This document shows positions 6,950-54,904 of a stretch of 57,647 nucleotides of DNA, piece after piece (within the stretch, counting starts at the first letter, position 1; every line of letters begins with the position of its first letter). The notes under the pieces are model-generated. The model saw only the letters and a list, made by a program, of their open reading frames with translations. It did not search any database and was not told the origin of the DNA. A program made the translations under genes and the position numbers. Source of the stretch: a virus (taxonomy: Duplodnaviria > Caudoviricetes); IMG/VR virus record IMGVR_UViG_3300042514_000067, positions 1 through 57,647 of that record; one strand, written 5' to 3'.

Positions 6950-6972
6950 AGCCACCTTCGGGTGGCTTTTTT
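6950..6972 (+). terminator. Rho-independent terminator ending early region
   Basis: GCCACC-TTCG-GGTGGC followed by T6. Confidence 0.92.
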
Positions 6973-6984
6973 ACGTCTGTACTA

Positions 6985-7012
6985 TTGACAAAGTAAAAAG
7001 TTATGATACTAT
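6985..7012 (+). promoter_or_regulatory. sigma70-type promoter of replication arm
   Basis: TTGACA, 16-bp spacer ending TGA, TACTAT. Confidence 0.7.
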
Positions 7013-7041: not shown

Positions 7042-7374
7042 ATGAGGTATGAAGACGCAAGATTAGAAGACAACATATTACTTTGCCCCCAATGTGGCGG
7101 CAACAACTTACATCAACGTACAGTCACAGTCTTCAACCGCAATGAAGACGGCAAGCATACAGAGGTTACGTGTGTTCAAGCACACACTGACACATCGACT
7201 GTAATAGTTACTGACGAGACCACAAGCAACCCAAGCCCTAGGCGTCACGGCATGCTGATTGATTTTGAGTGTGAGATATGTTACGAGGTTCAAGAGGGCG
7301 AACCCGTACACGACAGATTAGTCCTAGCTGTGTATCAGCACAAAGGATTAACGCTGATCGAGTGGGTGAAGTAA
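7042..7374 (+). CDS. Zn-ribbon hypothetical protein
   Basis: GGAG RBS; CPQC...CEIC. Confidence 0.7.
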   Translation: MRYEDARLEDNILLCPQCGGNNLHQRTVTVFNRNEDGKHTEVTCVQAHTDTSTVIVTDETTSNPSPRRHGMLIDFECEICYEVQEGEPVHDRLVLAVYQHKGLTLIEWVK

Positions 7375-7673
7375 TGGCAACCACACCTGAAGCCAAGGTC
7401 AAGGCAAAGATCAAGGCAATCCTCAAATCATATAGAGCCTACTACGTTATGCCTATCGGTACTGGCTACGGCAACAGTGGCGTCCCCGACTTTTTAGTTT
7501 GCCTCAACGGAGAGTTCTTGGCGATTGAAGCCAAGGCGGGCAGGGGCGTGCCGACTGCGTTACAAGAAAAGAACATGCGTGAGATCAAAGAAGCAGGGGG
7601 CAGGGCTTTGGTCATCAACGAAGAGAGCCTTGAGTTAAACATACTTGAAGCCGTACTGGACAACATGCTATGA
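7374..7673 (+). CDS. VRR-NUC domain nuclease
   Basis: TPEAKVK...GVPDFLVC..G.FLAIEAKA...TALQ...GG.ALVI. Confidence 0.85.
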   Translation: MATTPEAKVKAKIKAILKSYRAYYVMPIGTGYGNSGVPDFLVCLNGEFLAIEAKAGRGVPTALQEKNMREIKEAGGRALVINEESLELNILEAVLDNML

Positions 7674-7909
7674 CAGCCATTAGTCGTGCCGACCTACTCA
7701 AAGAATTGTTGCCCGGGTTGAATAAGTTATTCGGAGTAGCGTATGCAGAACGTAACCGCATCGAGTACCGCATGAAGTCAAACTATGGCAAATACAGTAT
7801 CTACAAGTGGAACTACGTTGACGACAAGCGAACAAGCACAACCCTAGCCAAAGGCTTAGACAAAGAGACTGCCACAGGCATGATGAAACTATTAAAGGAA
7901 CCAACATGA
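7670..7909 (+). CDS. Small protein with major-capsid-like N-terminus
   Basis: AISRADLLKELLPGLNKLFGVAYA matches MCP N-terminus at 20/24 residues; ATGA-coupled on both sides. Confidence 0.8.
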   Translation: MTAISRADLLKELLPGLNKLFGVAYAERNRIEYRMKSNYGKYSIYKWNYVDDKRTSTTLAKGLDKETATGMMKLLKEPT

Positions 7910-8334
7910 AACTGATTGAAAAGTTTATGCTCAAGCGTTGCTCTACCGAAGTACAGGTAATGCTCACACGCATGAAGGAACGACCCGAGGATTTCGACTA
8001 CGGCTCAGCTTGGAAGAAGCTCGTTGAGATTGCCGACGATACACGTAGCCCGTACACAAAGATTGAGCGCAAGCTAATACTCAAGTACTGGAAAGAATGT
8101 CAGTTGCAGCGGGATCGTAAAAAGTTACTCGCTCAGATCATGCAACAGACAATCAACCCAACTACTCGAGAAGATATAGAGGATGGGTTAATTAGCAAGC
8201 GGTACGCTCAAGCACTAGCCGCATCAATGCAAGCCACAAAGCAAACATTACAAAGCAACATAACCACAGGACACACCGATTCACGTGGAATGTACACGAC
8301 CCACGTTTACCCCACACAAGGCAGAGTAGTATGA
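7906..8334 (+). CDS. hypothetical protein
   Basis: AAGGA RBS, coupled ORF. Confidence 0.75.
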   Translation: MKLIEKFMLKRCSTEVQVMLTRMKERPEDFDYGSAWKKLVEIADDTRSPYTKIERKLILKYWKECQLQRDRKKLLAQIMQQTINPTTREDIEDGLISKRYAQALAASMQATKQTLQSNITTGHTDSRGMYTTHVYPTQGRVV

Positions 8335-10148
8335 ACATATTAACGATTGACTTCGAGACATATTATTCTCGGGAGTTCTCGCTAACAAAAGTTACCACAG
8401 AGGAATACATTCGTAGCCCGCAGTTTGAAGCTATTGGCGTAGCCGTACAGGTAGACGATGGTGAGCCCGAGTGGTTCAGCGGTGATGGTGAAGCCATGCA
8501 CCAGTTCCTCAAGAAGTTTGATTGGGCGAACTCTTTGGCGTTAGCGCACAACGCCCCGTTCGATGGAGCGATTTTGAAGTGGGTCTACGGACTCAGCCCC
8601 AAAGGTTGGCTTGATACTTTATCTATGGGTAGAGCCTTGCATGGTACGCAAGTAGGCGGAAGCTTAAAGGTGCTGGCAAGTTATTACAACATTGGCGAGA
8701 AGGGTACAGAAGTTGGTGACGCATTAGGTTTACGTCGTGCCGACTTCAGCCCCGAGCAGTTAGCAAGCTATGGTGAGTATTGCAAGAATGACGTAACCCT
8801 CACGTGGAATTTGTTTGGGCAGATGAGCAAAGGCTTTCCCGCAGTTGAGTTGCGCCTGATTGATTTGACTGTACGCATGTTCACCGAGCCAGTCTTGCAG
8901 TTAGATGCAAACAAACTTAGGATTCATTTGGATACAGAGCGAACCCGCAAGGAAGAGCTACTCGAAAACTTTGCAAGAGAAGACTTGATGAGCAACCCAA
9001 AGTTTGCGGCTACGTTGGTTGCGTTTGGTGTTGAGCCCCCAATGAAAGTCAGCCCCGCAACAGGTAAGCAGACTTATGCGTTCTCTAAAACAGACGAAGA
9101 GTTCAAGGCTTTACTCGAGCATGAGAACCCCGCAGTTCAATCTTTAGTGGCAGCGAGATTTGGTACTAAGTCTACGATAGAAGAAACAAGGACTGAGAGG
9201 TTTCTTGGTATTGCCAATCGTGGTGCTTTACCTATACCACTACGCTACTATGCCGCGCATACAGGGCGGTGGGGTGGTGATGACAAGTTGAACTTGCAGA
9301 ACCTACCAAGGAACTCAATGCTCAAGGAGGCGATCATTGCCCCGAACGGCTACATGATGATTGATTCAGACTCATCACAAATTGAAGCCCGTACGCTCGC
9401 ATGGCTTGCGGAACAGGACGACTTAGTTGACGCATTTGATCGGGGCGAAGATGTATACAAAATCATGGCATCTGCTATCTATGGCAAAGACGTCACGGAG
9501 ATTACGAAGGACGAGAGATTCGTTGGTAAGACCACTATCCTTGGTTGTGGGTACGGTATGGGTGCGAAGAAGTTCCAAGCTCAACTCAAAAACTTTAATG
9601 TGGCGATTGACTTGGATGAAGCAACACGGATTATCGACACGTACCGCGCAACGTATCCGAAGATTACTGAGCTATGGAAGTCTGCGGCGTCAGCCCTCAA
9701 AGCTGTATTACAGAACCAACAGACTACGTTAGGCCGAGGCGGTGTCTTAAAGATAGATGGTAGCAGTGGCGTGCTACTACCAAATGGTTTGTACCTACGC
9801 TATCCCAACCTACGCATACTTCAGAACGACGAAGGTAAGTCTGAGCTGGTGTACGACACCAAGAAGGGCAAAGCAATTATCCCAACACGCATTTATGGTG
9901 GCAAGGTAATTGAGAATGTATGTCAAGCCTTAGCTCGCATCGTGATCGGTGAGCAGATGCTCTTGGTTGCAAAGAAGTACCGAGTCGTGATGACCGTACA
10001 TGATGCCATCGCTTGTATTGTTCCGTACGAACAAGTTAAAACCGCTTTGGAGTACGTTGAGATGTGCATGCGCACCCGCCCGGATTGGGGCATGGAGTTA
10101 CCACTAAACTGCGAAGCAGGATATGGGACAGATTATGGAGCATGCTAA
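8331..10148 (+). CDS. polA: Family A DNA polymerase (3'-5' exonuclease + polymerase)
   Basis: ExoI DFET, ExoII AHNAPFD, ExoIII YCKND; NLQNLP, motif A DSSQIEAR, motif B KTTILGCGYG, motif C VHDA. Confidence 0.95.
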   Translation: MNILTIDFETYYSREFSLTKVTTEEYIRSPQFEAIGVAVQVDDGEPEWFSGDGEAMHQFLKKFDWANSLALAHNAPFDGAILKWVYGLSPKGWLDTLSMGRALHGTQVGGSLKVLASYYNIGEKGTEVGDALGLRRADFSPEQLASYGEYCKNDVTLTWNLFGQMSKGFPAVELRLIDLTVRMFTEPVLQLDANKLRIHLDTERTRKEELLENFAREDLMSNPKFAATLVAFGVEPPMKVSPATGKQTYAFSKTDEEFKALLEHENPAVQSLVAARFGTKSTIEETRTERFLGIANRGALPIPLRYYAAHTGRWGGDDKLNLQNLPRNSMLKEAIIAPNGYMMIDSDSSQIEARTLAWLAEQDDLVDAFDRGEDVYKIMASAIYGKDVTEITKDERFVGKTTILGCGYGMGAKKFQAQLKNFNVAIDLDEATRIIDTYRATYPKITELWKSAASALKAVLQNQQTTLGRGGVLKIDGSSGVLLPNGLYLRYPNLRILQNDEGKSELVYDTKKGKAIIPTRIYGGKVIENVCQALARIVIGEQMLLVAKKYRVVMTVHDAIACIVPYEQVKTALEYVEMCMRTRPDWGMELPLNCEAGYGTDYGAC

Positions 10149-19631: not shown

Positions 19632-19660
19632 ATCCCCAGCTAATCACTGGGGATTTTTTT
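19632..19660 (+). terminator. Rho-independent terminator at convergence point
   Basis: ATCCCCAG-7nt-CTGGGGAT followed by T run. Confidence 0.8.
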
Positions 19661-22600
19661 CGGCCTTACGTTTAGCCGCCATCTCTTCGGCTCGGCGATC
19701 TAAGCGGTCTCGCAATTTATCTGCAGGTTCCCCAATAATTGAAACATTTTTTTCTGTAATAGCTACACCGGCGCGAGAACTTGCACGTTGTTCAGCTCTT
19801 GCAAGAAGTGAATCATAGATTGCATCGGCATCAAGCCCAAACGCTGGGTACTTCTTATTAAACTTGGCCACTTCGTTTTCAATGATGTCTTGGAACTTAT
19901 CGTCCCCTGCATCAGTTTCTTTACGGCGTTCAAAATCAAGTCTGTTCAACAACAAGTTGCGTTGGTTATTAATTTTTTGTTCGATACCAGAATATTTAAA
20001 CGCTGGCCCTTGAGTAGCCGCAAGGATGTCAGGACGGAAGCCAATGGCTTGACCAATTATTTCACCCGTCTTTACATCGTCTTTACCGACTAGCTCAACA
20101 CCACGACCGGTCTTCATGCCTTCATCTGCGTATTTGTTAGCAACCACAAGATTACGGACTACAGCGGGAAGCATGCGCTCCATCATCTTCTGATAGTCAC
20201 CCATTGCGTAGGCATCGTAGGCGTCGGCAAAACCAAGTAACAGACTTGCGGTTGGGCCACCAAAGTGGTCTAGCATAAAAGCAATTGCGCTTTCCCTAGA
20301 AGTCTTAGTCTCTTTACTATCTCGGCCCCATAGATCGGCTAGTCCAACACGCGAAGCAATATCTTCTCCAGTGATTGCATTTAACGGGCCACGAGCAATT
20401 AGGTCGCTTACGGGTACACCACCAAGCTTGACGTCACCTAAGTTCTCAGGAAGGAATACTTCAAAGAACCAAGTTTTAAAGTCAATGTCTTTAAGTTCTT
20501 CAGGCCAATCTTCATCAAGCTCTAATTGACCCCAAGCCCACCCAGCGAGTCCCATAATAGGATTGATTAGGGCCATGTTTGCCGCACCCGCAAGGAGGAA
20601 AGAAGTGCCCATCATGCCGAACAACTTAGTGGCTGCTTCTTTTTTGCCTTCTTTATTAAGGAAGGGGAGCATCTTCTTAAAGTTAGTTAGCATCAGCAAA
20701 GACATCTGCAATGGATACGTCTTAAACTGGAACGCAATCTTACCAATACCCTGTTGCATAAACCGTGGACGGTTTGTAATGTCGTAGTTACCAAGTGCTT
20801 CGTTAGTAGAGTCAACAGCTTTCTGGACAGCAGTGTCGTAGTCAAGCCCTTGCTTCTTACCTAATCTATACGCAGCGAGGTAGACGGCCTCACGACTTAA
20901 GCGCTCAGTGTTGTGCATCAAAGCGCCGACCATCAAGTTTGCAAGACGCTTACCTTTACCTACGACACCTTCAAACTGCTCGGTGGACATGCTCTTGTAG
21001 CCCCACACCAAGGAGGCATAGGTTGACTCAGATACACCGCGTGACGTCATCTCACTAATTGCTTTGCGCTCATCAGCAGGGAGGGTTTTATTATTTGCAA
21101 TACTTGGCGCAGAGATAGAGGTTGTGCCGTCTGGGTTAGGGCGGAACACGCTGTACTGATTGACTAACGTAGCCATCTTTGCAAGTTCAGTAGCCGCACC
21201 GGTAACGTTGTTGTAGTTACCACCAAGCACAGGTAAGCCGGAAATGAATACGCTAGAAGGCTGAATCAAAGCCGACGCAGCAGAAGACAGGTACCAGAAG
21301 TAAGACGCTTTGTTTGCTATACCAGCAACGGATTCACTTAGTGAACCGTGAGCGCCAGATAGCGCCATGTTGACACGCTTCTCAGCTTCTTGCACAAACG
21401 GAGACAACTCTTCACGTTCCCCAATTGAGTCACGCGCCTCTGATAATGCAAGGCGAAGTTGTGGCGCATACTTTAGGCGTGCCAACTGAATGGATTGCTT
21501 AGAAGCAGTAGTTGCAATGTTTTGCTGTAAGTCTGTGCTAAAACCAGCCCGACCCTTACGATGGGTAAACTGCCTACGGAAAGATTGCTCAGGCATTGTG
21601 GTCAGATAGATTTGGTAAACCGCATCTTTTAAACCTTCTTTAGCTTCGGGCGAGCCCATGTCTTTGGCATCAATTGCCGCAAAAACTTCCTTGAGCATTG
21701 TGCTAGCGTCCTGTGATGCGGCGCGTAACTCTTTCAAGTCATTACCTTGCACAAACTCTTTATCGGCTACTAGCTCAGCTAGGGATTTACCTCGCTCTGC
21801 CGCCATTTGTTTAGCCGCTTCGTTGCGCTCTGCGCGGGTCTCAAACAAATAAAATTGACGGTTGTCACCAGAACCAATAGCTAAGAAGAAATCACCACGG
21901 CGCACCAACGGGAAGAAAGGCCTAATCCGTGACTCGGCTTCAAACGTCTTACGCAAGACAGCCATCAAGTTTTTCTTTTCCTCGGGGGACATGCCCTGCA
22001 TGTTGCCTATTTGCTCATCTAATATGTCGGAGTACAACTCAATGATTGACTCATAGTAATCCCGCAACTGCTTGTACATGCGTTGACCAACAGAGCCGAG
22101 TGCTTTGTAGTCGGCATCAAGTTGCTTGCTACGTATACGGGTGTTGGTATCAGACGGGTCTACCTCTGCTAACGTAGTGCCGTACACAAAATCTGCAAAC
22201 TGCTTGCGGCTAAGCTTAGGGTCTTCTTTGAACCCGCGATTCATAGAATCAATAACTCGTTCAGCGCCAACCAAGAATTGCTGAGACATACCCAACATAC
22301 GCTGCAGTTGAGTGTTAGCTTTGTTTAGCGCAGGTATACCCGCATCAGCGGCCCACTTAGCCAAGAAATCAAACGTGGGAAGGCGCACAGTAGCTTCTAG
22401 TCTTGTATATCCTAGGTCGCTAGTTACGTTAGCCAAGATTTGGCGTACCGCTTTGGGGTCACGTGCCAACTGCATTAGCTCAACATTCTTAGCCGCGTCG
22501 CCCTCATTAGACAAGCGCACTTTTTCTTTTGCGATCTTTACGTCTCTGGCAAGCTGAAGCGCAGAACGCTGCACTTTACTGTCGGCTTCTTCGTTGAACT

Positions 22601-25600
22601 CGGGAGGAGTGAACTTGCCCTTTTGTTGGAGCGAAGTTCTTTTCATTTCAATTGCTGTAAGCCGTGTGCCAAGCATCTTGTCAGTAATGTCGACCAGATC
22701 AGAGAACGCAGTAGCATCACCTTGCTTGATACCAAACAAGTCACGAATGCTATTAACAAATGTAGAGAACAGGGTCGGCTCTTTGCGCGTGCCCTTTACG
22801 CGCATCAAGAACTTTTGGAACTCGGGGCTAGACATGCCGTAAGCCAAGAACTCGTAGGGGTTCTTAAATATGTCGTAGCTGTCTGTTTTGGGGTCGTAAG
22901 TTCTACTGACAATATCGTTAACGTCTTCGTCAACCATATCAAGATACGCCAAGTCTTTGTACTCTTGCTCGGCACGCTTCATTATGTCGCCCATCTCACG
23001 GATGAACTTCTGAAGACTGGCGTTTCTAAAACCTTTTAGTAGACCTGCTTGAATACGACTAGCTGTAGCTGCGTGCAACAATTCGTGTAGCACTGTTATG
23101 TTATTTATGCCTTGTAGGTCTCCGAAGCTACTACCACGCACGTATACAGTACGTTCTTTCTGGCCCGGCGTATAAACAAAAAGTCCACGCGCTTCTTTTA
23201 GCTCTTCAAGAATATTGGCCGGGGTTGCATCACCCTTTTCAACAACCACAAACTTAACACCAACCATAAAGTTGCGGATGCGCTGCGCAACAAAACGTTG
23301 GAACAAATTGCCAGTCTTAATGATTTGCGCAATTGCCTGTGAGCCGGTGGTTAAATTGTTAAATCCTGTGTCGGGCTTATCTACTCTACCTGCGGCAGAA
23401 CGTAGCTTTTTGGGGATGTCCTTTGGATCAACGTCGTCCTCAAGCATCTGCTTGGCACGTTTACGCACTGCTTCGGGCGCAGTTTTATCATTGGCAGCGT
23501 CATTAATATATTCTGCTGCACCTTGGATTTTGTCTCTACTACCGGGTGAGTTGTACGCCTCAAGCGCCGACTCTAAAGCGTTAAGCTCTACTTTAGTTTC
23601 TTGGTCTAAATCAACAGCGCCATCTTCTGACACAGCTTTAGCTGGTCGGCCTCGACCCGTAGATGCAAGTGCTTTATCAAGCTCAGCTTGGAACTTAGCA
23701 ACTTTTACAGGATCGTTTTTATCCTGTGCTTTAGCCAGATTGACAGCCGCAGTTGCTTGCTTCTGGGTATCGTAAGTTTCAGTTACTTCGCCATCGGTAA
23801 CGTGCTCGTGTTTACCCTCGGAGTTTTTAACAACTACGTGCCTTTGCTGGACAGGTGGCCGACCACGAGTCTTACCGGTTACTGCTCCGGCTGGTGATGC
23901 TTCTTGTCCTTCTTGCGTTGTTTTGATGGCTTCAATGGTTTCAGTGCCAAGTTGGGCTCCTTCAGTTTCAGTGGGTGGGTTAAGTCTGTTAAGTTCTTCG
24001 TCCGTTATCGTTACGGTTTTAGTATTTACTCTATCCCCGTTGTCATCAACACCATCAGGGTGGTTACTTACATCGACTTCAAGTTTATAAAGCGTTGGTT
24101 GCCCACGTTTTTCTTCTACACCAACTACTTTTGCAGGCGCTCCGGCAAAAGCTGATTGAACTACTTCCGCGCCGGGGTAAAAATACGTCCAAGGTTTACC
24201 ATCCTGTGTGGTAACAAGCCTGTCCTTTGGTGTTTCTTCTACTGCGGCTGGTGCAACTACTTCTGCTGCCTGCTCAACGGGTGTTTCAGCGGGTGTTTCC
24301 GCAGGTGCTACTTCTAATGTAGTCGGCTCAACTGCTTCTCCAACAGGAGCTCCTGCAACATCCTGTCCAGTAGATACCACTCCACTTGGCTCAGTGACTC
24401 CAACTCCTGCGGCGGGGGGCTCTGCACTGGGCTGTCCAGCCACCTCAACGCTTTCTCCACTTGGAGTACTGATAGGCTCAGCAATATCTGCTGTTCCTCT
24501 TGTTTCGTTCTGCGCAAGCTCATCTGATTGTGACTCCTCTTGGGCTAGCCTTTGTGCGTCAAGTACCGCCTGTTGTGGGTCAACACCAGCGGCAATTAAA
24601 TCTTGTGTGATCTGCTCAACACGACCTTCAGGTATCTTAATAGATGCAGTTTTAGCTTCGGCCTTTAACTCTGCATCAACTTTACGCGCAGCAATATTCC
24701 CCGCGTTGGGTTCGGGTATACCCTGCTGTAGATTAATTTCGGTAAGCGCGGCAATCCGCTCGGCACGAACCTGTTCAGGTGTAGTTGCTGTTGTTTGCGT
24801 AGCAGGTGGAGGGGGAGGCGCTGCCTCAAACAACTCAGAGCTTAGGTCTTTGCCCTTGGTGGTTTTAGCATCGGCCTTAGTTTCTTTGCCAAATAACTCA
24901 GAGCTTAGGTCTTTACCTTTAGCGCCACGGTTACGCGCACCTGTAGCTACTTCCGCAAGGCCACCGGGGAGGTCTGCTAAACCTTCAACAATTATGTCTA
25001 GGGGTTTGTTCTCGCCTGTCAGTACTTGACCGCCAGCCTCGCCAGCCATACCGGAGCCAACCTGAACGCCAGCTTCTTTTGCGCCAGCCGTGACCGCCGC
25101 TTTGCGTGATATACCAGTTCCCGCTGTTTTAAGTGCGCGAATAAACCGACCAGCAAAACCAGCCGACAACGCATCAAAAGCAGCAACGGGAATGCCTCGC
25201 TTTACGCCATACTCACGGGCTTCAGAAATAAACTTAGGGTCTTCTAAAAGTTTTTGTACAGCAGCTACGTTTGAGGTATCTACTTTTCTTTTCTCTAAAA
25301 GTTCACCAATTGCCGAACCAAACTCAGTGGCAAAAGAAGTTGCACCAGAGGCAACCGCAAGACCCGGGGGCCCCGCTGCAATACCTGCGCCTACGATAAC
25401 AGGCACAGTTTGTAAGGTAGCAACGGCAGACTCACCAATTAGAGAAGCTAGGGCTTTCCAGTTCTTTGGCTTGATAACTTCTTTAGCTACGTCACCAAAA
25501 CTTCCAGTTTCGTTAGCTTCTTGCAAGCGCTCCAGCCCTGCAGCTACATTACCAGAGGGTTTAATTTGCTTCTGTCGGCGAGCTAGGTCACTAATGCTCT

Positions 25601-25805
25601 CAGCATATTCTTTAGCGGTAATTGCCCCAGACTGAAATTTTAAAGCCTCTCGGGTTCCTTCCGCCTGAAGCAAGCCACGTTTGCCTACGTTTGCAACTTC
25701 ATCAGTGGCTGACGGTTCAGCAAATAAGTCCGCGCTTAAATCCCGACCCTGTTTAGAAGGTGCCGGTGTGGGAAATAACTCAGCGCTTAAATCACGACCG
25801 GCCAT
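19644..25805 (-). CDS. Large internal virion/ejection protein (polyvalent, zincin-like motif)
   Basis: 2053 aa, last gene of the structural arm; VLHELLH...EFLAY zincin-like motif; G[RK]DLS.[ED]LF x4; RGRP motifs; hydrophobic helical C-terminal region. Confidence 0.75.
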   Translation of the reverse strand: MAGRDLSAELFPTPAPSKQGRDLSADLFAEPSATDEVANVGKRGLLQAEGTREALKFQSGAITAKEYAESISDLARRQKQIKPSGNVAAGLERLQEANETGSFGDVAKEVIKPKNWKALASLIGESAVATLQTVPVIVGAGIAAGPPGLAVASGATSFATEFGSAIGELLEKRKVDTSNVAAVQKLLEDPKFISEAREYGVKRGIPVAAFDALSAGFAGRFIRALKTAGTGISRKAAVTAGAKEAGVQVGSGMAGEAGGQVLTGENKPLDIIVEGLADLPGGLAEVATGARNRGAKGKDLSSELFGKETKADAKTTKGKDLSSELFEAAPPPPPATQTTATTPEQVRAERIAALTEINLQQGIPEPNAGNIAARKVDAELKAEAKTASIKIPEGRVEQITQDLIAAGVDPQQAVLDAQRLAQEESQSDELAQNETRGTADIAEPISTPSGESVEVAGQPSAEPPAAGVGVTEPSGVVSTGQDVAGAPVGEAVEPTTLEVAPAETPAETPVEQAAEVVAPAAVEETPKDRLVTTQDGKPWTYFYPGAEVVQSAFAGAPAKVVGVEEKRGQPTLYKLEVDVSNHPDGVDDNGDRVNTKTVTITDEELNRLNPPTETEGAQLGTETIEAIKTTQEGQEASPAGAVTGKTRGRPPVQQRHVVVKNSEGKHEHVTDGEVTETYDTQKQATAAVNLAKAQDKNDPVKVAKFQAELDKALASTGRGRPAKAVSEDGAVDLDQETKVELNALESALEAYNSPGSRDKIQGAAEYINDAANDKTAPEAVRKRAKQMLEDDVDPKDIPKKLRSAAGRVDKPDTGFNNLTTGSQAIAQIIKTGNLFQRFVAQRIRNFMVGVKFVVVEKGDATPANILEELKEARGLFVYTPGQKERTVYVRGSSFGDLQGINNITVLHELLHAATASRIQAGLLKGFRNASLQKFIREMGDIMKRAEQEYKDLAYLDMVDEDVNDIVSRTYDPKTDSYDIFKNPYEFLAYGMSSPEFQKFLMRVKGTRKEPTLFSTFVNSIRDLFGIKQGDATAFSDLVDITDKMLGTRLTAIEMKRTSLQQKGKFTPPEFNEEADSKVQRSALQLARDVKIAKEKVRLSNEGDAAKNVELMQLARDPKAVRQILANVTSDLGYTRLEATVRLPTFDFLAKWAADAGIPALNKANTQLQRMLGMSQQFLVGAERVIDSMNRGFKEDPKLSRKQFADFVYGTTLAEVDPSDTNTRIRSKQLDADYKALGSVGQRMYKQLRDYYESIIELYSDILDEQIGNMQGMSPEEKKNLMAVLRKTFEAESRIRPFFPLVRRGDFFLAIGSGDNRQFYLFETRAERNEAAKQMAAERGKSLAELVADKEFVQGNDLKELRAASQDASTMLKEVFAAIDAKDMGSPEAKEGLKDAVYQIYLTTMPEQSFRRQFTHRKGRAGFSTDLQQNIATTASKQSIQLARLKYAPQLRLALSEARDSIGEREELSPFVQEAEKRVNMALSGAHGSLSESVAGIANKASYFWYLSSAASALIQPSSVFISGLPVLGGNYNNVTGAATELAKMATLVNQYSVFRPNPDGTTSISAPSIANNKTLPADERKAISEMTSRGVSESTYASLVWGYKSMSTEQFEGVVGKGKRLANLMVGALMHNTERLSREAVYLAAYRLGKKQGLDYDTAVQKAVDSTNEALGNYDITNRPRFMQQGIGKIAFQFKTYPLQMSLLMLTNFKKMLPFLNKEGKKEAATKLFGMMGTSFLLAGAANMALINPIMGLAGWAWGQLELDEDWPEELKDIDFKTWFFEVFLPENLGDVKLGGVPVSDLIARGPLNAITGEDIASRVGLADLWGRDSKETKTSRESAIAFMLDHFGGPTASLLLGFADAYDAYAMGDYQKMMERMLPAVVRNLVVANKYADEGMKTGRGVELVGKDDVKTGEIIGQAIGFRPDILAATQGPAFKYSGIEQKINNQRNLLLNRLDFERRKETDAGDDKFQDIIENEVAKFNKKYPAFGLDADAIYDSLLARAEQRASSRAGVAITEKNVSIIGEPADKLRDRLDRRAEEMAAKRKAEKNPQ

Positions 25806-39041: not shown

Positions 39042-42000
39042 TTAGATCCTTGCTTCAAGAGATTTAACACGAGTTGATAATTCGGCCACTGCCGCAAAAG
39101 CCAGCGCACTGAGCTTTTCGTAGTCTACCGCGAGAGAGCCGTCTGGTCTAGTGCGAACTGCAACTGGGAACACTGCTTGGACGTCTTGGGCAATTACGCC
39201 AAAGTCTTCTTTTTGGACGAAGTAACCGTCTTCACCGCCGTGTTCTTCAATGTATTCGTCGTTCCAATCAAACAACTTGCCACCAATGCTTTCAACGGTT
39301 TCTATGGCATTGGGAATCGTGCGCACGTTTGTCTTAAACTTGATGTCTGAAGAATAATAAGCCGTGACGTTAGCCGTTGCGCGAATTTCACCTGTTGTAC
39401 CGGAACCTGCTGTACCCACGCCAAGCGTTACGATCTGCACATTGTTTAAGTTTGAAGTACTGGCAGGATCTAAGTAGTAAGCGGTGTTGTCGTAGTCGTA
39501 GAAAAGCGATGCGCGGAACGAACCTGTTGCGTAACCAACACCGGCATCGGAATCTAAGAAAATACGTGCTACGCCATTGGAAGCAACGTAAAAACCCCAA
39601 TTACCAATTATGCCAATACCCGATATGTTTCCAACTGTGTAGCCAACACCGTACATGTTACCAAGCGATGTAGTGCCGGGAACATATGAGCCGCCAATAC
39701 TGTAAATAGCGCCTGATGTACTACCGTTTTCGTAAGTTGGATACTGCCCGTTTAAATAACCTTTGCTAGCAGCCTGACGATAGTATGGCCCTGCAGTTTC
39801 AACATACGAAGAAGCAATTACGGAAGTTGCGCTAACCGTGCCGCCTGACTGATTGGTGGCTGTTGTGGCTGTTGCAGCGTTGCCTGTACAAGAAGCGGAA
39901 GAGCCTGTTACGTTACCGCCGGATGTAATGTTTGTACCAGCAACAGTACTTGCCATTGTCAAAGCACCGGCCATTGTTATCTGCAAAAGGTTTGCAGGGG
40001 CAGACCAACCGCCAAGACGGAATATGTTATCCGAATCAAGGCCCATGTTGATGGCGTAGTAGCCGCCACGGTGGAAGGCCATGATTGCACCGCTAGCATT
40101 GTTTGAGTAAGCCTGTAATGGTGGGTTAGATCCTGAAGTGTTTTGGTTAGAATAAAAATAGTTACTTGCATAATAATTACTGCTTCCGTTAACAGTAATA
40201 GTGTTTAAATTTGACGTGCTTGCAGGGTCTACGTAGTAGCCGGTATTGCTATAGTCGTAGAAAAGCGTGCCGCGCACATCCGAGGGGGTTCTTAAACTAC
40301 CGCCGCCCCAAGCACCTTGAAACCCACCGTTCTCAAGCATGAGTATGCCGTGGGAAGCAAGGTTTGCCGCAGCGCCGCCAGCATTTGGGTGTGACCAAGC
40401 AATACCGTACAAGTTACCTGTGGTCGTTCCGTTGGCGGGGAGAATATAGGCTTCCCCCATTGAAAACACGGCTTGGTATTTAGTTGAATCGTAAAGGCCA
40501 ACTTGTCCAATGCCATAGTTCCTAGAAACCATGTTGGAGTTGTAGTAGACCTTGTTTAACTCTGATGTGCTTGCAGGGTCTAAGTAGTAAGCGGTGTTGT
40601 CGCTGTCGTAGAAGATGGGGGCACGCCAATCGGACGTTGCGTAACCTGTCCCCGCCAAGTGAATGTTGTACGCGGGATTTGTGACGTTGTTAAACCCTGC
40701 GTTAGCCCCCAAAAAAGTTAGTCCGTGGATACCTGCGAGGTTGTTGTATGCGGCATAAAAATGGCCGTCTCCCACGCCCATTGAATAATACGCAGGGGTT
40801 CCTGCAGTGCCTTGTATATTCAATACACCGTAGTTGGCGCCCTGAATACCTATTTGTTTGGTGGTAGACGCAGTGCCAAAAGCAGTATTTACGGGGGACA
40901 AAGATCCAACACCGACACTACCCGCAAGAATTGCTGAAGTAGTTGAATTGGGGTCTAAGTAGTATGTGGTGTCGTTGCTGTCGTAGAAGATGGGGGCGCG
41001 GTAGTCACCGCTGGTTGTGTACGTTCCTGTGCCGCTTGCTTTGTTTGTCAGGTTGGCAAAATCAACTGATCCCGCTGAGCCGCTTGTGCTGTCTGAAATA
41101 CGTGCAGAGTCAACACGAACACCATAAGTGTTAGCTCCGTTCCATCCCATCAATGTGGGATATGTGGAAGACCAAGCCGCCGCTGAATTAGTGTTATTTA
41201 CTGCACCGCCACTTGGGGATGTGCCTGCGGAAGCATCAAAAATAACGTGGGAGTTACCGTAGTTTTTCCACGCCAGCATACCAACGACATTGTTGATAAC
41301 CCCTGTACCAACCCAATTGGATTGACCGCTTGACAGCGCAGTTGCTGTCGCCGCGTTACCCGAAGTAGATCCTGAAGACCCCGTAATGTTAATACCCCAA
41401 GTACCCGAAGCGCCTGTACCTGTCAGTGTGGGGGCGTAGCTGTTGTAGTTTGCAGCGGTGAGGACTTGACTGCCACCTTGTTGCAACGCTCCGGTAACAT
41501 TGGCAACAGACCCAGATAGTTGAAGCGCAGCACTTCCGCCGTTCAAGTTAAGCGTGCTTGAGGTACTAATATTTAGTATGCCATAGGTATTAGTGTTACG
41601 GTCGTAAGGAATAATGTACCCTTGACCGCCTGACACGCCAACTTCAACAGCAAATCCTGTTGCGGCGTTTCCTGAATACCAGCCCGTAAACCTACCTTGC
41701 CCGGTGGTGCTGATGTCATCAGAGAATGCGCGTTGAGAAGTGGTAGTTGAATTAGTGGCCGAAGTTGCGTTACCACTCAGAGTCGCAGTAATCGTACCGG
41801 CAGAGAAGTTACCAGAAGCATCCCGTGCCACTACTTTGGAAGCTGTGTTTGCAGATGTGGCGTCCACTGTCCACGTCTGTGCAGCCGAGCCGTTGTATGC
41901 TGTGCCGGTCAGGTATGTGCCTGCCGTTAAGCTATTCAAGTTAGAGCCAAGCGGTACGCCAGAGATTGTTCCAGCAGACCATGTAAACGCAGAGCCGTTG

Positions 42001-43373
42001 AAGCTCAGAACCGTATTTGTGCCAGAGGCTGCAGTGATGAACGCTGTTGCGCCTGAACCTGTTTGGTAGGGAATCTGATTGGCTGCGCCGCCTGCAAGGT
42101 TTGTTGCAGATGTTGTGTTACCAGAGAAAGTCGCTGTAATTGTCCCAGCCGAGAAGTTACCAGACGCATCACGAGCAACAACCTTAGAAGCCGTGTTAGC
42201 AGAGGTCGCATCCACTGTGGCCGTCACAGCCCCAGAGCCGTTGTATGTACCGCCCGTCAAATATGTACCGAGCGTCAATGCGTTAGCGACCGAGCCAGCA
42301 GAGCCAGAAATGTTGCCCGACACCGCAGAGCCGTTAATTGCAATCGCTGTATTGGTTACAGATGTGACCTGACCTTGCGCGTTGGTGACGAACACCGGCA
42401 CAAAAGAAGATGAGCCGTATGTGCCCGCAGTGCCGGTGTTGGCAATGTTAAATGTGTATGTTGGAGACTCGCTCAGTCCTGTGCCAGCCGTATAGGTGAT
42501 GGGCGCAGAGAACTGCTGAAACACAAGTGCGGTTGTGCCAATCGTTATGGGGGGAGGAGTCTGCTGTACCCAAGCGGTATTGACGTTGGCCGTGCCGCTA
42601 GTCACCAAGAAGAAGTCGCCTTCGTCGATCTCGTTAACGCCGGTTCCAACGGAATCAAAGTCTGTGGCGCGGGTCAAGATGTAGGGTGTTCCAGCGGAGC
42701 CAACTTGCGTCACGGTGTACACACCGTTATTTGCACCGGCTGCTTCGTTCTTGACTAAGATTCTTTCTGAAACAACAGTAAGCGTTGAATCCACAGACAG
42801 AGCGCCGTTGGCGTTTCCTGTAAGCGTTGCCCCTACCCCAGAAGTTCCGTTGTTGTATGTGTTGGCTGGCAGTGCTGCGGTAGTCGCCAAGTTCACCGCT
42901 TCGTGGAAGTGGATGCCAGATGCAATCGCGTCAGCGTACTGTTTGTTAACAATGTCTGTGTTGTTAACAGGAGCCGTGGTAATTGTGCCTGTAGTCAGTG
43001 CAGCAGAGGTAGCTGTAATCGCGCCAAAAGACTGTTGAACTACTTGCGTTCCTGCTTCGTTTTGATACGCCGACCGTGAGGATGGGTATGTAACAAACAC
43101 ATCTACTGCGCCAGTGAAATTGACTAGTGCTCCACCAGCCGAAGAAGACAACGGCGTAGCGTTACGAGTCAGCGTTGTACCGGAAGACGTGTAAGTGCCA
43201 TAGTTAACTTCCCAATCACCCGAGACTGGGTCAACAATTGCAAAGTAAGTTGTGTTGGCGTTGCCAACCGAAGCAAAAGATTGAAAACCTGTAGCTGTAG
43301 CACCCAACGTAATGGTGCCAGTGCCCGGTGCGGCAGCCGCTTGTTTGACCCGGTCTTTTAGTACTAAAGCCAT
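39042..43373 (-). CDS. Long tail fibre with C-terminal intramolecular chaperone (peptidase S74)
   Basis: N-terminal LVLKDRVK...GTG anchor; YSSDIKFKTNV...FDW...GVIAQDVQ.VFP.AV...VDYEKL + coiled coil. Confidence 0.9.
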   Translation of the reverse strand: MALVLKDRVKQAAAAPGTGTITLGATATGFQSFASVGNANTTYFAIVDPVSGDWEVNYGTYTSSGTTLTRNATPLSSSAGGALVNFTGAVDVFVTYPSSRSAYQNEAGTQVVQQSFGAITATSAALTTGTITTAPVNNTDIVNKQYADAIASGIHFHEAVNLATTAALPANTYNNGTSGVGATLTGNANGALSVDSTLTVVSERILVKNEAAGANNGVYTVTQVGSAGTPYILTRATDFDSVGTGVNEIDEGDFFLVTSGTANVNTAWVQQTPPPITIGTTALVFQQFSAPITYTAGTGLSESPTYTFNIANTGTAGTYGSSSFVPVFVTNAQGQVTSVTNTAIAINGSAVSGNISGSAGSVANALTLGTYLTGGTYNGSGAVTATVDATSANTASKVVARDASGNFSAGTITATFSGNTTSATNLAGGAANQIPYQTGSGATAFITAASGTNTVLSFNGSAFTWSAGTISGVPLGSNLNSLTAGTYLTGTAYNGSAAQTWTVDATSANTASKVVARDASGNFSAGTITATLSGNATSATNSTTTSQRAFSDDISTTGQGRFTGWYSGNAATGFAVEVGVSGGQGYIIPYDRNTNTYGILNISTSSTLNLNGGSAALQLSGSVANVTGALQQGGSQVLTAANYNSYAPTLTGTGASGTWGINITGSSGSTSGNAATATALSSGQSNWVGTGVINNVVGMLAWKNYGNSHVIFDASAGTSPSGGAVNNTNSAAAWSSTYPTLMGWNGANTYGVRVDSARISDSTSGSAGSVDFANLTNKASGTGTYTTSGDYRAPIFYDSNDTTYYLDPNSTTSAILAGSVGVGSLSPVNTAFGTASTTKQIGIQGANYGVLNIQGTAGTPAYYSMGVGDGHFYAAYNNLAGIHGLTFLGANAGFNNVTNPAYNIHLAGTGYATSDWRAPIFYDSDNTAYYLDPASTSELNKVYYNSNMVSRNYGIGQVGLYDSTKYQAVFSMGEAYILPANGTTTGNLYGIAWSHPNAGGAAANLASHGILMLENGGFQGAWGGGSLRTPSDVRGTLFYDYSNTGYYVDPASTSNLNTITVNGSSNYYASNYFYSNQNTSGSNPPLQAYSNNASGAIMAFHRGGYYAINMGLDSDNIFRLGGWSAPANLLQITMAGALTMASTVAGTNITSGGNVTGSSASCTGNAATATTATNQSGGTVSATSVIASSYVETAGPYYRQAASKGYLNGQYPTYENGSTSGAIYSIGGSYVPGTTSLGNMYGVGYTVGNISGIGIIGNWGFYVASNGVARIFLDSDAGVGYATGSFRASLFYDYDNTAYYLDPASTSNLNNVQIVTLGVGTAGSGTTGEIRATANVTAYYSSDIKFKTNVRTIPNAIETVESIGGKLFDWNDEYIEEHGGEDGYFVQKEDFGVIAQDVQAVFPVAVRTRPDGSLAVDYEKLSALAFAAVAELSTRVKSLEARI

Positions 43374-51046: not shown

Positions 51047-51958
51047 TTAGGCTGAACCGGGTGAACCGAAGGTACCCAATGGATCAGACCAGCCGAAGCT
51101 ATAACGCTCGCGGGCTTTGTAACGAACGTTACCTGTGTCAAAGTCACCGTCCATCTTGTTCTCCAAAGGAGAGCGGATGAAATGCTTCAGACCGTTAGGC
51201 ACATCAGTAGTCAAATACCAGCCGTTTGTGTCGGTCAGGTAGTGGTTAATGGTGTAGCCTTCAGGGATTGAACCGTTGTTCTTCAACGCATTGATATCGT
51301 TGTCAGTTGTACCAACGCGGAGGCTGGTTTCCAACAAACGAGTAGCAACGAATTGCAGAGCTGGGGGAACAATCAATTTCTTAGGCTTAGCAGCGATCAA
51401 AAGACCACGCTCGTCTGTCCAAGCAGCGATTTGAATAACGGCGGCTTCCAAAGAAGTCTCGTTCAAGTCAGCGGCTGTAGAAGGACGATTGCTGTTAGTG
51501 CCACCAGAAATCAGGGGGTGAGCAGTGCTGAACAAAGGTACACCATCACCACCAACATAGGCTGAGCTAAAACCGTTGTTGATAACGGCGGCAGCTTTAA
51601 CCTGCTTGGTGTAAGCCATAGCGCGAGCCAATGCTTTGGTGTAACGAGCTGACAAAGAGTCATACAAGTTATCTTCCACAGCTTCTTCAGTGATGGAGAA
51701 GCCTAAAGCGATGGTTTCGTGGTTATAGCGAGTTGTCCATGCCTCTTGTGCATTGTCATAAGCGATGGCAGAGCCCTCGTTCTTAACAGGTGCAGCAGAG
51801 AAGCCAGACAGCTTGGTCTCTTCTTCGAAGGAACGCTCAGAGGTCTCTGTTTCGTAGAGTTCTTTGTGCTCTTCGCCGTAACGAGCATACTCCATACCGA
51901 ACAATGCGTTCAGGCCGGGGAGGAGTTCCTTAAGTAGTTGTGCGCGTGAAATTGCCAT
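51047..51958 (-). CDS. Major capsid protein (Mu gpT-like, HK97 fold)
   Basis: AISRAQLLKELLPGLNALFG, ITEEA.EDNLY, GDGV.LFS..HP, LIVPP.L, RYKARERYSFGWSD. Confidence 0.92.
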   Translation of the reverse strand: MAISRAQLLKELLPGLNALFGMEYARYGEEHKELYETETSERSFEEETKLSGFSAAPVKNEGSAIAYDNAQEAWTTRYNHETIALGFSITEEAVEDNLYDSLSARYTKALARAMAYTKQVKAAAVINNGFSSAYVGGDGVPLFSTAHPLISGGTNSNRPSTAADLNETSLEAAVIQIAAWTDERGLLIAAKPKKLIVPPALQFVATRLLETSLRVGTTDNDINALKNNGSIPEGYTINHYLTDTNGWYLTTDVPNGLKHFIRSPLENKMDGDFDTGNVRYKARERYSFGWSDPLGTFGSPGSA

Positions 51959-53287: not shown

Positions 53288-54292
53288 TTAACCTCTTTTA
53301 AGTTGAGCAACCTGTTTAGCGTATTCTTCCAAAGGAACCCCAAGACGGCGAGCGATCGCTGCTTCAGATGCCTTCAGCCTAATACGATTAGGCGGAGTGC
53401 TACGTGAGGCCGGAGCCACAACAGTAGCGGGTTTTGTTGCACGGCGCGGAGGTTCATCCTCGTAAGCCGGTTCTGATGCCTTTTTAGAAGGGGCGTCATC
53501 TTCATAGCTCTGAGCATCTTCATAATACTCAGGAAATCGTCTACGCATTGTAGCGTCTACTCGTTTGTAGTAGTCATCAGACCCCACAAAGCCAGCACCG
53601 TGTTCCTTAGCCAACTTCTGATGCAACCCGAGGGCGGAAGCTGTCATTTCAGGATCGGTACCAAACCAAGTGTTTTTCTGCATCCAACTTTGATCTTTTG
53701 GGGTAACAGAAGGTTGATTTGTACTACGTTGTTGTATTTGTACTTCATTTTCTTCGACTTGTAAAGGCCTCATGTTCTGAACTTTGTCTAAATTCAGTGT
53801 TGCCCGTGAAACTTCTGCTTGTGCATCTACCACAGCATCGGAATCTCCGGACTCATAAGCCTCTTTGTATTTCTTTTTGGCGTTCTCAAATTCCATTTCA
53901 GCGGAACTCTTTGACTGCTCAATGTACGCTTTTGACCCAAGCAATACTTGTTCTTGCAACTTGCGGTTTTGCTCCCACAATTGCTTGGTCATATTCTCAG
54001 CCGCCTCGCGCTCGCGCAGTGCTTCTTCTTTGGCACGTCGCTCGTCGTGGTAGCCCTTACCTAATTTCTTGATACGGGCTTGGACTTTTTCGTCGTATTC
54101 GGATAGTTCATTCTCGGTAACATCTTCCACCTGCGCCTTCATGGGCCTGCGGCCACGGTCTTCTGGTGGGGTGTCATCCTCAATTTCTACTTCAAATCCG
54201 CCATCATCTTCTTCTACTTCGGGTTTACCCTTAGCTTCTTCATCTACTTCATGAGGAAACTTAAAGTCATCTTTAAACTCAGTTTGTGCCAT
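53288..54292 (-). CDS. Capsid scaffolding protein
   Basis: Acidic N-terminus, long coiled coil, W...N.WFG, C-terminal IARRLGVPLEEYAK. Confidence 0.75.
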   Translation of the reverse strand: MAQTEFKDDFKFPHEVDEEAKGKPEVEEDDGGFEVEIEDDTPPEDRGRRPMKAQVEDVTENELSEYDEKVQARIKKLGKGYHDERRAKEEALREREAAENMTKQLWEQNRKLQEQVLLGSKAYIEQSKSSAEMEFENAKKKYKEAYESGDSDAVVDAQAEVSRATLNLDKVQNMRPLQVEENEVQIQQRSTNQPSVTPKDQSWMQKNTWFGTDPEMTASALGLHQKLAKEHGAGFVGSDDYYKRVDATMRRRFPEYYEDAQSYEDDAPSKKASEPAYEDEPPRRATKPATVVAPASRSTPPNRIRLKASEAAIARRLGVPLEEYAKQVAQLKRG

Positions 54293-54303: not shown

Positions 54304-54714
54304 TTATGCTGCACGTGTAATACCACGGGGGTCTTCCACAACTGCTTCAACCGAATCATCATTGAGGATGCGGAATTCACGGCCATGAATCTTCAGACGG
54401 GTGCCTGAATTTGGTCGGACGATGATGAAATCACCTTCCTTGCAACTCGGGCCGCTAGGGAACCGAGTGGTGTCTTTGTAGCAGTCAGGCCCAAGCTTGA
54501 CGACAAATAGAACGGGGGTAAGTACTTCTTCAAAGTGCATAGATTGGCTAGATTTAATAATCCCAGCTTCGCTCTCTGCATACTCTTGCATAGCTTCAGG
54601 CACCACACACAAAATGTGAAATGTACGTGGGTCAGGCAACTGCTTAGCTTTGTCTTCAGAGGGCTTGTTAAGAATGCCAGACAGGTCTACGGCAGCGATG
54701 TTAAATTCAGTCAT
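54304..54714 (-). CDS. groES: GroES/Cpn10-like co-chaperonin
   Basis: LP.P...IL..., GII, VVKLGPDCY, CKEGDFI, G.EFRILNDD.V.AVV. Confidence 0.8.
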   Translation of the reverse strand: MTEFNIAAVDLSGILNKPSEDKAKQLPDPRTFHILCVVPEAMQEYAESEAGIIKSSQSMHFEEVLTPVLFVVKLGPDCYKDTTRFPSGPSCKEGDFIIVRPNSGTRLKIHGREFRILNDDSVEAVVEDPRGITRAA

Positions 54715-54904
54715 CAGATCTCTCCATTTTTTGCACGAGGTCATTAATAATGTTTTCTGCTAGGTTAAGGCCTCGGATCACCCCACAGATACTTCGATAC
54801 TCTTCTATGTCAGCGGCTCTGCCGTTGGCAAGATGAAAAGCTTGCTCTGCTCTAAGTCGCTCTATCTCATTAGCGATATGCGACAAAAGTTTGTAGTCGT
54901 TCAA
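54707..54904 (-). CDS. conserved hypothetical protein
   Basis: LA.G......EY...CG.IRGL..AE, between portal and groES. Confidence 0.75.
   Translation of the reverse strand: MNDYKLLSHIANEIERLRAEQAFHLANGRAADIEEYRSICGVIRGLNLAENIINDLVQKMERSDD

Follow-up and report, generated by a model that had tools for sequence, protein, structure and literature searches.

The window analysed here, the whole 57,647-nucleotide stretch of the virus record IMGVR_UViG_3300042514_000067 (Duplodnaviria; Caudoviricetes; estimated 92% complete), carries on its plus strand the gene for a small protein of 79 amino acids, ORF79, whose N-terminus is a copy of the arm (N-arm) with which the record's own major capsid protein (MCP) begins. 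The plus-strand genes, which run to 19.4 kb, comprise an ATPase, an HNH protein, a DUF3310 protein, a VRR-NUC-type endonuclease, ORF79, an open reading frame (ORF) named orf142, a family A DNA polymerase, an exonuclease, a helicase and a primase, and ORF79 sits within this replication block, as the original prediction from the sequence had stated. The minus-strand genes, read from 57.6 down to 19.6 kb, are structural and include the portal, a GroES-like protein, a 334-residue scaffold-like protein, two unknowns and the MCP. The copied segment, its occurrence on other proteins and its putative role in procapsid assembly are described below.

The copied N-terminal segment

BLASTP comparison showed that residues 3-26 of ORF79 and residues 2-25 of the MCP are identical at 20 of 24 positions (pairwise E value 5e-11), the shared stretch being the extreme N-terminus of both proteins. 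In a codon-by-codon comparison, 46 of the 72 bases of the motif are identical; six of the 20 shared residues use the same codon and 14 a different one, including Ser AGT versus TCA. The identity, coordinates and codon differences given in the original prediction were all exact, the MCP segment (51884-51955) lying on the minus strand. The similarity was also proposed to be kept at the protein level rather than to reflect a recent DNA copy, and this is borne out in all six records with both genes that were compared, where the motif DNA is 55-65% identical and the shared residues are mostly in different codons. When the profiles of the two families were aligned with hhalign, only residues 1-28 matched (probability 98.3%, E value 2.6e-14), and beyond these residues neither BLASTP nor hhalign found a further ORF79/MCP segment. 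With the match ending at residue 28, the remaining ~50 residues of ORF79 are unrelated to the capsid, as had been predicted. A reading of ORF79 as a shortened HK97-fold MCP paralogue was rejected, there being no similarity through the E-loop, the spine helix and the P and A domains. On the whole 57.6-kb record, the ORF79-family profile matched two places only, ORF79 itself and the MCP N-terminus. Conversely, an N-arm profile built from MCPs alone and run over 34,931 ORF fragments, drawn from all DNA fetched in the analysis, scored the ORF79 module at 48 bits (independent E value, iE, 1.6e-12). The two N-termini are predicted to form helices across the same residues. The MCP was assigned by Pfam to Phage_capsid_4 (E value 6.1e-15) and to Mu-like gpT (E value 3e-9); by sequence it matched no solved structure at E <= 1, and its model, with a predicted local distance difference test score (pLDDT) of 67, matches HK97-fold capsids only generically, encapsulins among them.

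A word-indexed search returned 219 clusters of ORF79 homologues, and the 120 that were listed have 72-100 residues and are 62-96% identical over nearly their full length; an exhaustive profile search gave 199 proteins at E <= 0.001. Both halves of the protein are conserved among 118 aligned sequences. The invariant residues are L13, P15 and F21 in the helix and Y33, G40, Y45, S56, T58, A68 and the GMM.L tail elsewhere, and S5-R6 and P15-G16 are retained. Coding DNA taken from 74 of 79 related viral loci yielded 52 unique ORF79 sequences, of which the 40 keeping the canonical [ST]R and P15 were used to calculate the ratio of nonsynonymous to synonymous substitutions (dN/dS) by the Nei-Gojobori method, the 12 without these residues being excluded. 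The ratios, which are descriptive as the pairs are non-independent, were 0.18 in codons 3-26 and 0.20 in codons 31-78 when 780 pairs were taken, and 0.16 and 0.27, respectively, for the 164 closer pairs. The original prediction had allowed for a one-off capture without purifying selection; instead, both halves of ORF79 are under such selection. Among curated families, ORF79 had no match in Pfam at E <= 0.01 or in PHROGs at E <= 0.001. A tblastn search of 50,697 phage records returned only 11 chance rows (E >= 3), and blastn of the 6 kb around the gene gave no match. The AlphaFold2 (AF2) model made with the family alignment has a mean pLDDT of 91.9 and consists of a helix (residues 6-28), three strands (30-38, 41-50 and 53-63) and a second helix (65-76). 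The protein is basic, with an isoelectric point (pI) of 9.65 and 15 lysines and arginines against nine aspartates and glutamates.

Insertions and deletions in the ORF79 family are concentrated at residues 27-31, and members of 53-70 residues consist of the strand-helix part alone, while other members have unrelated N-termini. Together with the restriction of the MCP match to residues 1-28, these indels and helix-less members indicate that the MCP-like helix is a separate module, joined to what we call the payload domain. Small uncharacterised phage proteins of ~50 residues in BFVD match the payload part with a target template modelling (TM) score of 0.8, a root-mean-square deviation of 1.4-2.0 Å and E values of ~0.01-0.03. 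Searches of the PDB with the ORF79 model found nothing significant by Foldseek or by a wide structural search (Z <= 4.5). The top Foldseek matches were double-stranded RNA-binding domains, at a weak level (E value 0.1-0.6, query TM <= 0.36), and the alpha-beta-beta-beta-alpha order of ORF79 matches that of these domains. In the ESM Atlas, the C-terminal part resembles integrase arm-binding domains (TM ~0.5), which we take as a lead only. Two peculiar members of the family were observed. In the homologue cluster P0030 (L011), a second, degenerate N-arm motif lies in frame just upstream of the usual start. At L016:10210-10836 (minus strand), a second, inverted ORF79-like copy runs past the normal end near the contig end and is likely an assembly chimera.

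In the MCP, residues 1-21 vary only at positions 6 and 8 across 198 distinct proteins of 73-98% identity, a set gathered with a pattern requiring part of the motif, and the N-arm motif persists, with changes, out to the MCPs of HTVC023P and CRP-902. In the seven records with both genes the MCP N-terminus is identical, and the ORF79 helix shares with it between 11 and 19 of 23 residues. These alignments indicate that the capsid N-arm is old and nearly frozen and that the ORF79 copy is the moving one, and they show no gene conversion between the two. Because the N-arm is nearly fixed, co-variation between ORF79 and the MCP is uninformative.

Recurrence of the module and the variable slot

The ORF79 gene has a fixed position. 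VRR-NUC lies directly upstream on the same strand in 77 of the 79 related viral loci, the exceptions being a contig end and a locus in which an additional copy is inverted, and the DNA polymerase follows 0-1272 bases downstream in 72, the remaining seven loci ending less than 1 kb after ORF79. As orf142 was detected within ~420 bases downstream of ORF79 in only 14 of the 79 loci, it is not an obligatory partner. The ORF79 gene was found in none of 16 records picked solely via their MCP, including five that are at least 99% complete, and in none of six cultured relatives, in four of which the family profile matches only the MCP N-terminus. In the five complete relatives (G031-G035, L235-L239), the stretch between VRR-NUC and the polymerase is different in each and holds anything from a single small ORF up to ~4.8 kb of small unrelated genes. 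The capsid protein of the clade is very common in public data, with at least 8000 clusters against 219 for ORF79. ORF79 is a genuine, selected, small basic protein of two modules, encoded by an accessory gene in the hypervariable slot that separates VRR-NUC from the DNA polymerase.

A search for standalone N-arm fusions in related phages, named in the original prediction as a check, found the motif on several unrelated small proteins, either N- or C-terminal. One complete relative without ORF79 encodes in the same VRR-NUC-polymerase slot a protein of 119 residues that ends with the N-arm motif after an acidic, proline-rich linker. This motif is identical to MCP residues 5-26 at 15 of 22 positions (E value 2e-7), with 13 of the 15 shared residues in different codons and 37 of 69 bases identical. 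The relatives of the 119-residue protein amount to only two clusters (98% and 83% identity), in which the motif is kept, with one substitution in the 83% cluster. The P0348/P0323 family (107-110 residues) has the motif at its N-terminus and occurs in seven viral loci of a more distant phage (polymerase identity 33-37% over the covered part), between the genes for exonuclease and helicase. A scan of viral contigs with P0323 was dominated by MCP matches. The cognate MCP of the P0348-family phages was absent from the four records searched. In the P0340 family (107 residues), identified in five loci from one metagenome scan and in no viral contig, the motif is N-terminal and the gene lies immediately upstream of the polymerase, in the slot shared with ORF79 and the 119-residue protein. 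In P0303 the motif is internal or at a possible alternative start. Each of these four families is present on several contigs, and the genes with a known context lie in the replication region. Scores with the MCP-only N-arm profile were 15-59 bits for the ORF79 family, 41-49 bits for the P0348 family and 28 bits (iE 2.6e-6) for the 119-residue protein. Judged from these matches, the amphipathic N-arm-like helix is a portable module carried by several unrelated payloads at either terminus.

The recurrence bears on a reading in which the helix descends from an MCP fragment and is now only a structural or oligomerising element of a small nucleic-acid-binding replication protein. The basic character of ORF79 and its place between a nuclease (77/79 loci) and a polymerase (72/79) agree with such an exapted helix, as do the drift to a generic amphipathic pattern in some lineages and its loss in others, and the weak fold likenesses given above to double-stranded RNA-binding and integrase arm-binding domains point the same way. 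However, this reading does not account for the reappearance of one stretch of 22-26 residues, at one end or the other and with saturated synonymous differences, on three or more further unrelated proteins, nor for the restriction of copying to the MCP ends. Retention of S5-R6 and P15-G16 in 118 sequences would also be needless for a plain amphipathic helix. We consider it an unlikely explanation.

Several candidates were set aside. P0287 was dropped as a probable chimera, its first 30 residues being identical to a marine MCP and the remainder homologous to another gene, and 11 further matches to the N-terminal motif only were treated as MCP fragments or chimeras since their MCP part continues past residue 28. 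Chimeras in public metagenome data join the MCP 5' end to an aminotransferase, a GroES-like gene and a 157-residue head gene (P0302, P0320, P0338, P0367, P0278 and P0287), and they are a trap for searches of N-arm fusions. In addition, small and very basic ORFs in marine structural loci (L308, L318, L326, L333, L357, L359, L378, L382 and L390) begin with the first 7-9 residues of the MCP followed by lysine-rich tails, with weak profile scores (iE 0.03-0.7).

The MCP N-arm was not the only assembly-related segment found on small proteins. The scaffold-like protein of the window has homologues of 38-92% identity in nine related records, and its last 40 residues have a pI of 11.4. Two of the five P0340 loci (L414 and L415) carry the N-arm-like module, and the other three (L416-L418) carry a module resembling the scaffold helix-turn-helix. 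This module is identical to one scaffold at 11 of 24 positions (BLASTP E value 1e-5) and aligns to ten scaffolds with an hhalign E value of 2.7e-4 and a probability of 42%; against the scaffold of the window itself the match is weak (E value 0.29). A scaffold-tail profile scored L416 and L417 at 18.6-18.9 bits (iE 0.002-0.003), the next unrelated match having an iE of 7.6 and ordinary helix-turn-helix proteins scoring ~3 bits. The N-arm and scaffold helix-turn-helix tags are presumed to be the two sides of one interface. Over the 34,931 ORF fragments the scaffold-tail profile gave no match to ORF79, and a reading of ORF79 as a CpmB-type mimic of the scaffold terminus was rejected on this ground. 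The same profile matched an internal stretch of DUF3310 proteins encoded upstream of the ORF79 homologue in L064, L062, L022 and L077 (19-32 bits, up to 31.6) and a 61-residue ORF in L017 (22 bits), which may represent either mimicry or a shared type of helix-turn-helix.

In the P0348 loci (L399-L405, e.g. L401:6001-6700), the next gene is coupled by an ATGA overlap and encodes, from after residue 5, a copy of MCP residues 277-299 followed by ~90 unrelated residues (26-27 bits, iE ~4e-6). Sliding 30-column profiles along the whole MCP gave non-MCP matches for the first window, its overlapping window and the last window. The sole match to an interior window was in L076, where the C-terminal 16 residues of a 106-residue ORF just downstream of the ORF79 homologue resemble the start of the E-loop (18 bits, iE 0.0037). 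Copying is thus aimed at the ends of the MCP, which disfavours random relics of a decayed MCP copy. A duplicated-MCP relic was rejected as the tag is also C-terminal and internal and interior MCP parts are uncopied. More generally, ORF79 might be an artefact of assembly or a neutral remnant of a former MCP gene copy, chimeras of the MCP 5' end with unrelated genes being common among metagenome proteins (P0302, P0320, P0367, P0287). These chimeras, however, continue past residue 28 and are MCP-identical, whereas the ORF79 match ends at residue 28 and its codons differ. The 219 clusters, fixed position, dN/dS of ~0.2 and confident fold argue in the same direction, and relics would be expected to sample the MCP interior too, which they do not. 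We regard a relic or artefact as highly improbable.

A putative address for the assembly interface

We propose that the ORF79 helix is a putative handle for the scaffold-MCP assembly interface which brings payload domains to or into the procapsid, and we give this reading a probability of roughly 0.4. The helix would have the same binding partner as the capsid N-arm has while the procapsid assembles. From the analogy of phages P22 and 80alpha, the most likely partner would be the basic C-terminal helix-turn-helix of the scaffold, and the payload domain would thereby be delivered to the growing procapsid, and probably into it, in the manner of the T4 internal proteins with their capsid targeting sequence (CTS). 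The basic charge of the payload may suit nucleic-acid binding. According to the available part of PMC9962691, the C-terminal helix-turn-helix of the P22 scaffold binds the coat N-arm, which is helical in the procapsid, and cargo fused to the scaffold tail is encapsidated. For 80alpha, PMC5644958 (available text) describes packing of the scaffold's C-terminal helix on helix alpha1 of the N-arm, a site at which CpmB of SaPI1 is a competitor. The internal proteins of T4 are diverse and are described, in the portion of PMC3012670 at hand, as having only a capsid targeting sequence in common.

Of the four functions suggested in the original prediction (decoy for a capsid sensor, assembly-timing inhibitor, interference factor against co-infecting relatives, and cargo that enters the shell by its N-arm), none has been demonstrated. 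Readings in which the helix is an address or handle, for cargo or for scaffold binding, are favoured because the same module occurs on unrelated payloads, at either terminus, is exchangeable with a scaffold-like module and lies in variable slots of the early region; the capsid-sensor decoy is the least favoured of the four.

A number of observations weigh against a handle. The contact between N-arm and scaffold is taken from P22 and 80alpha and not from this phage, and it is by analogy that we infer the binding of ORF79 and its presence in the virion. The P0340 module matches the scaffold tail with modest scores and is similar to helix-turn-helix motifs at large. The ORF79 helix is identical to the N-arm at only 11 of 23 positions in a record with an MCP 98% like that of the window. 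Two complete relatives have a far more diverged ORF79 helix in which only the hydrophobic spacing is kept, and some members of the family are without the helix altogether. As the helix drifts or is lost while the MCP N-arm stays fixed, exact mimicry is not essential to the ORF79 family. MCP residue N17 is invariant in 59 aligned MCPs and in distant cultured relatives, and the matching position of ORF79 is mostly E. The AF2 model is one confident chain, which does not distinguish a free helix from one packed on the sheet. In addition, a 9-kDa protein might leak through capsid pores. Packaged proteins are usually made late, and ORF79 is unlike them in lying in the replication block behind a sigma-70-like match, a position that gives no timing in this type of phage. 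PMC12753301 (available part) describes a mosaic arrangement of the temporal classes in HTVC023P-type phages, so that "early" denotes for ORF79 a position and not measured expression. Prediction of a complex of the MCP, scaffold residues 195-334 and ORF79 from alignments gave no answer (score 0.00 in both runs, made without controls) and weighs neither way.

The same binding logic would serve an assembly modulator, in which the helix binds the same partner (scaffold or MCP) but competes with the MCP and delays or tunes procapsid nucleation, or disrupts capsid assembly in co-infecting relatives. A competitor would require tags from either side of the presumed interface, and both are found; the replication-block position would suit a timing role. 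A precedent is offered by SaPI1 CpmB, a small protein that copies the scaffold terminus and redirects assembly (PMC5644958, available text). Yet the MCP N-arm is near-invariant in the 198 MCPs, and a modulator would hit the phage's own assembly as hard as that of a rival. The absence of the gene from all five complete relatives with the same N-arm argues against a core timer, and the start of ORF79, which has no clear Shine-Dalgarno match upstream in contrast to the AAGGAG of the MCP, argues against titrating amounts. Several unrelated payload domains are also hard to explain if the tag alone acts. A modulator is, in our judgement, improbable to about the same degree as the exapted helix.

A further possibility is that the tag serves as an anti-defence decoy or sponge, occupying a host sensor of the MCP N-arm (or of the scaffold) without activating it. 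Some defence systems are known to have capsid or scaffold proteins as their triggers or as loci of escape, among them CapRel and type I cyclic oligonucleotide-based anti-phage signalling systems (CBASS) (PMC13728456, available part), and an accessory gene in a hypervariable slot, as counter-defence genes often are, would fit such a role, as would its position in the replication block. On the other hand, a trigger copy produced ahead of the capsid itself should activate the sensor, and a decoy would have no use for diverse payload domains. In its passages on decoys, mimics and the major capsid protein, a November 2026 review of phage countermeasures describes no capsid-peptide decoy (PMC13728456). 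We consider a decoy distinctly less probable than either a modulator or an exapted helix.

Returning to the handle for the assembly interface, one of its closest parallels is the CTS of T4, which the prohead protease cleaves off and which acts via the scaffolding core. Among the proteins of the window scanned against Pfam and PHROGs, none in the head module was recognised as a prohead protease. The CTS is a short N-terminal peptide common to diverse small proteins (IPI, IPII, IPIII and Alt), several of them counter-defence proteins, and loads them into the prohead (PMC3012670, in the part at hand). Similarly, one short terminal peptide is found here on at least four unrelated small payload proteins in variable loci (ORF79, P0348/P0323, P0340, P0303 and the 119-residue protein). 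Unlike the CTS, which the same part of PMC3012670 does not describe as a capsid copy, the tag reported here copies the MCP N-arm and can be C-terminal. SaPI1 CpmB, of ~70-80 residues, mimics with a terminal helix one half of the interface between scaffold and capsid (PMC5644958, available text), as ORF79 may do; CpmB is, however, a scaffold-side copy encoded by a phage parasite, whereas ORF79 is a capsid-side copy encoded by the phage. In engineered P22, a payload fused to the capsid-binding scaffold tail is directed to the procapsid (PMC9962691, available part). The scaffold-like variants of P0340 look like a natural version of these fusions, which are man-made, and the handle of ORF79 is the opposite partner, the N-arm. 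In the sources searched, as far as their available text goes, nothing described a tag made from a copy of a capsid N-arm. Cargo-loading peptides of encapsulins are likewise short terminal peptides, and they address varied cargo to the inside of an HK97-fold shell. Such peptides are not known to duplicate a terminus of their shell protein, and encapsulins are not known to use a scaffold.

If the handle were confirmed, this would be the first natural instance that we found in which a phage puts the end of its own capsid protein to use as an address for diverse payloads. A group of small proteins in uncultured phages could then be picked out as probable virion cargo, and a ready-made 26-residue tag would be on offer for loading proteins into HK97-type shells. 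In a broader and more speculative form, which we think rather unlikely as a whole, an abundant clade of aquatic podophages would possess a natural modular capsid-addressing system, in which accessory proteins of variable replication-region slots bear interchangeable MCP N-arm, MCP C-terminus or scaffold helix-turn-helix tags and the payloads, for example a counter-defence kit, are packed and delivered with the DNA to the next host.

Features and neighbouring genes of the window

The features discussed are collected in Table 1. The ATG of ORF79 overlaps the stop codon of VRR-NUC (ATGA), and its own stop overlaps the ATG of orf142. The hairpin and promoter match, located ~650 bases upstream of ORF79, are possibly the start of the unit that holds it.

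Table 1. Coordinates of features in the 57,647-nucleotide window.
Feature	Position	Strand	Basis and remarks
ORF79	7670..7909	+	79 aa; 219 homologue clusters; dN/dS ~0.2; AF2 mean pLDDT 91.9
MCP N-arm-like module, ORF79 residues 3-28 (predicted helix 6-28)	7676..7753	+	20/24 identical to MCP 2-25; AF2
Payload domain, ORF79 residues 30-79 (three long strands and C-terminal helix)	7757..7906	+	AF2; self-standing in helix-less members
MCP, HK97 fold, Mu gpT-like / Phage_capsid_4	51047..51958	-	303 aa; Pfam, PHROG
MCP N-arm, residues 1-28, original of the copied module	51875..51958	-	Predicted helix 5-28, low confidence
Scaffold-like protein	53288..54292	-	334 aa, acidic (pI 5.0); phrog_28737; between portal and MCP; named by position and composition
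Scaffold C-terminal basic helix-turn-helix-like segment	53291..53380	-	Pattern conserved in 10 scaffolds
VRR-NUC-type endonuclease	7278..7673	+	phrog_93, E 5.7e-16; upstream neighbour of ORF79
orf142	7906..8334	+	ORF call; downstream neighbour of ORF79, no assigned function
Family A DNA polymerase	8331..10148	+	phrog_17, E 3.7e-88; far border of the variable slot
Terminator-like hairpin (6950-6967), then sigma-70-like promoter match (6985-7012)	6950..7012	+	Consensus scan only

Judged by the MCP, the closest phages in culture are Planktothrix phage Pag-Yong1 (71%), the pelagiphages HTVC023P/027P (63%), DSL-LC04 and the roseophages CRP-901/902. Residues 87-113 of orf142 resemble MCP residues 90-119 (15/30 identical, BLASTP E value 1e-4). 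As profiles failed to recover this likeness to the MCP spine helix and it is weaker in 12 homologues, it was treated as probably due to chance. The GroES-like co-chaperonin gene (54304-54744, minus strand; phrog_3188, E value 9.4e-8) lies between the portal and the scaffold and is also annotated in Pag-Yong1, which suggests that capsid folding depends on the host chaperonin in a T4-like manner. The structural arm also contains two very large ORFs on the minus strand, at 19644-25805 and 39042-43373, of 2053 and 1443 amino acids, respectively.

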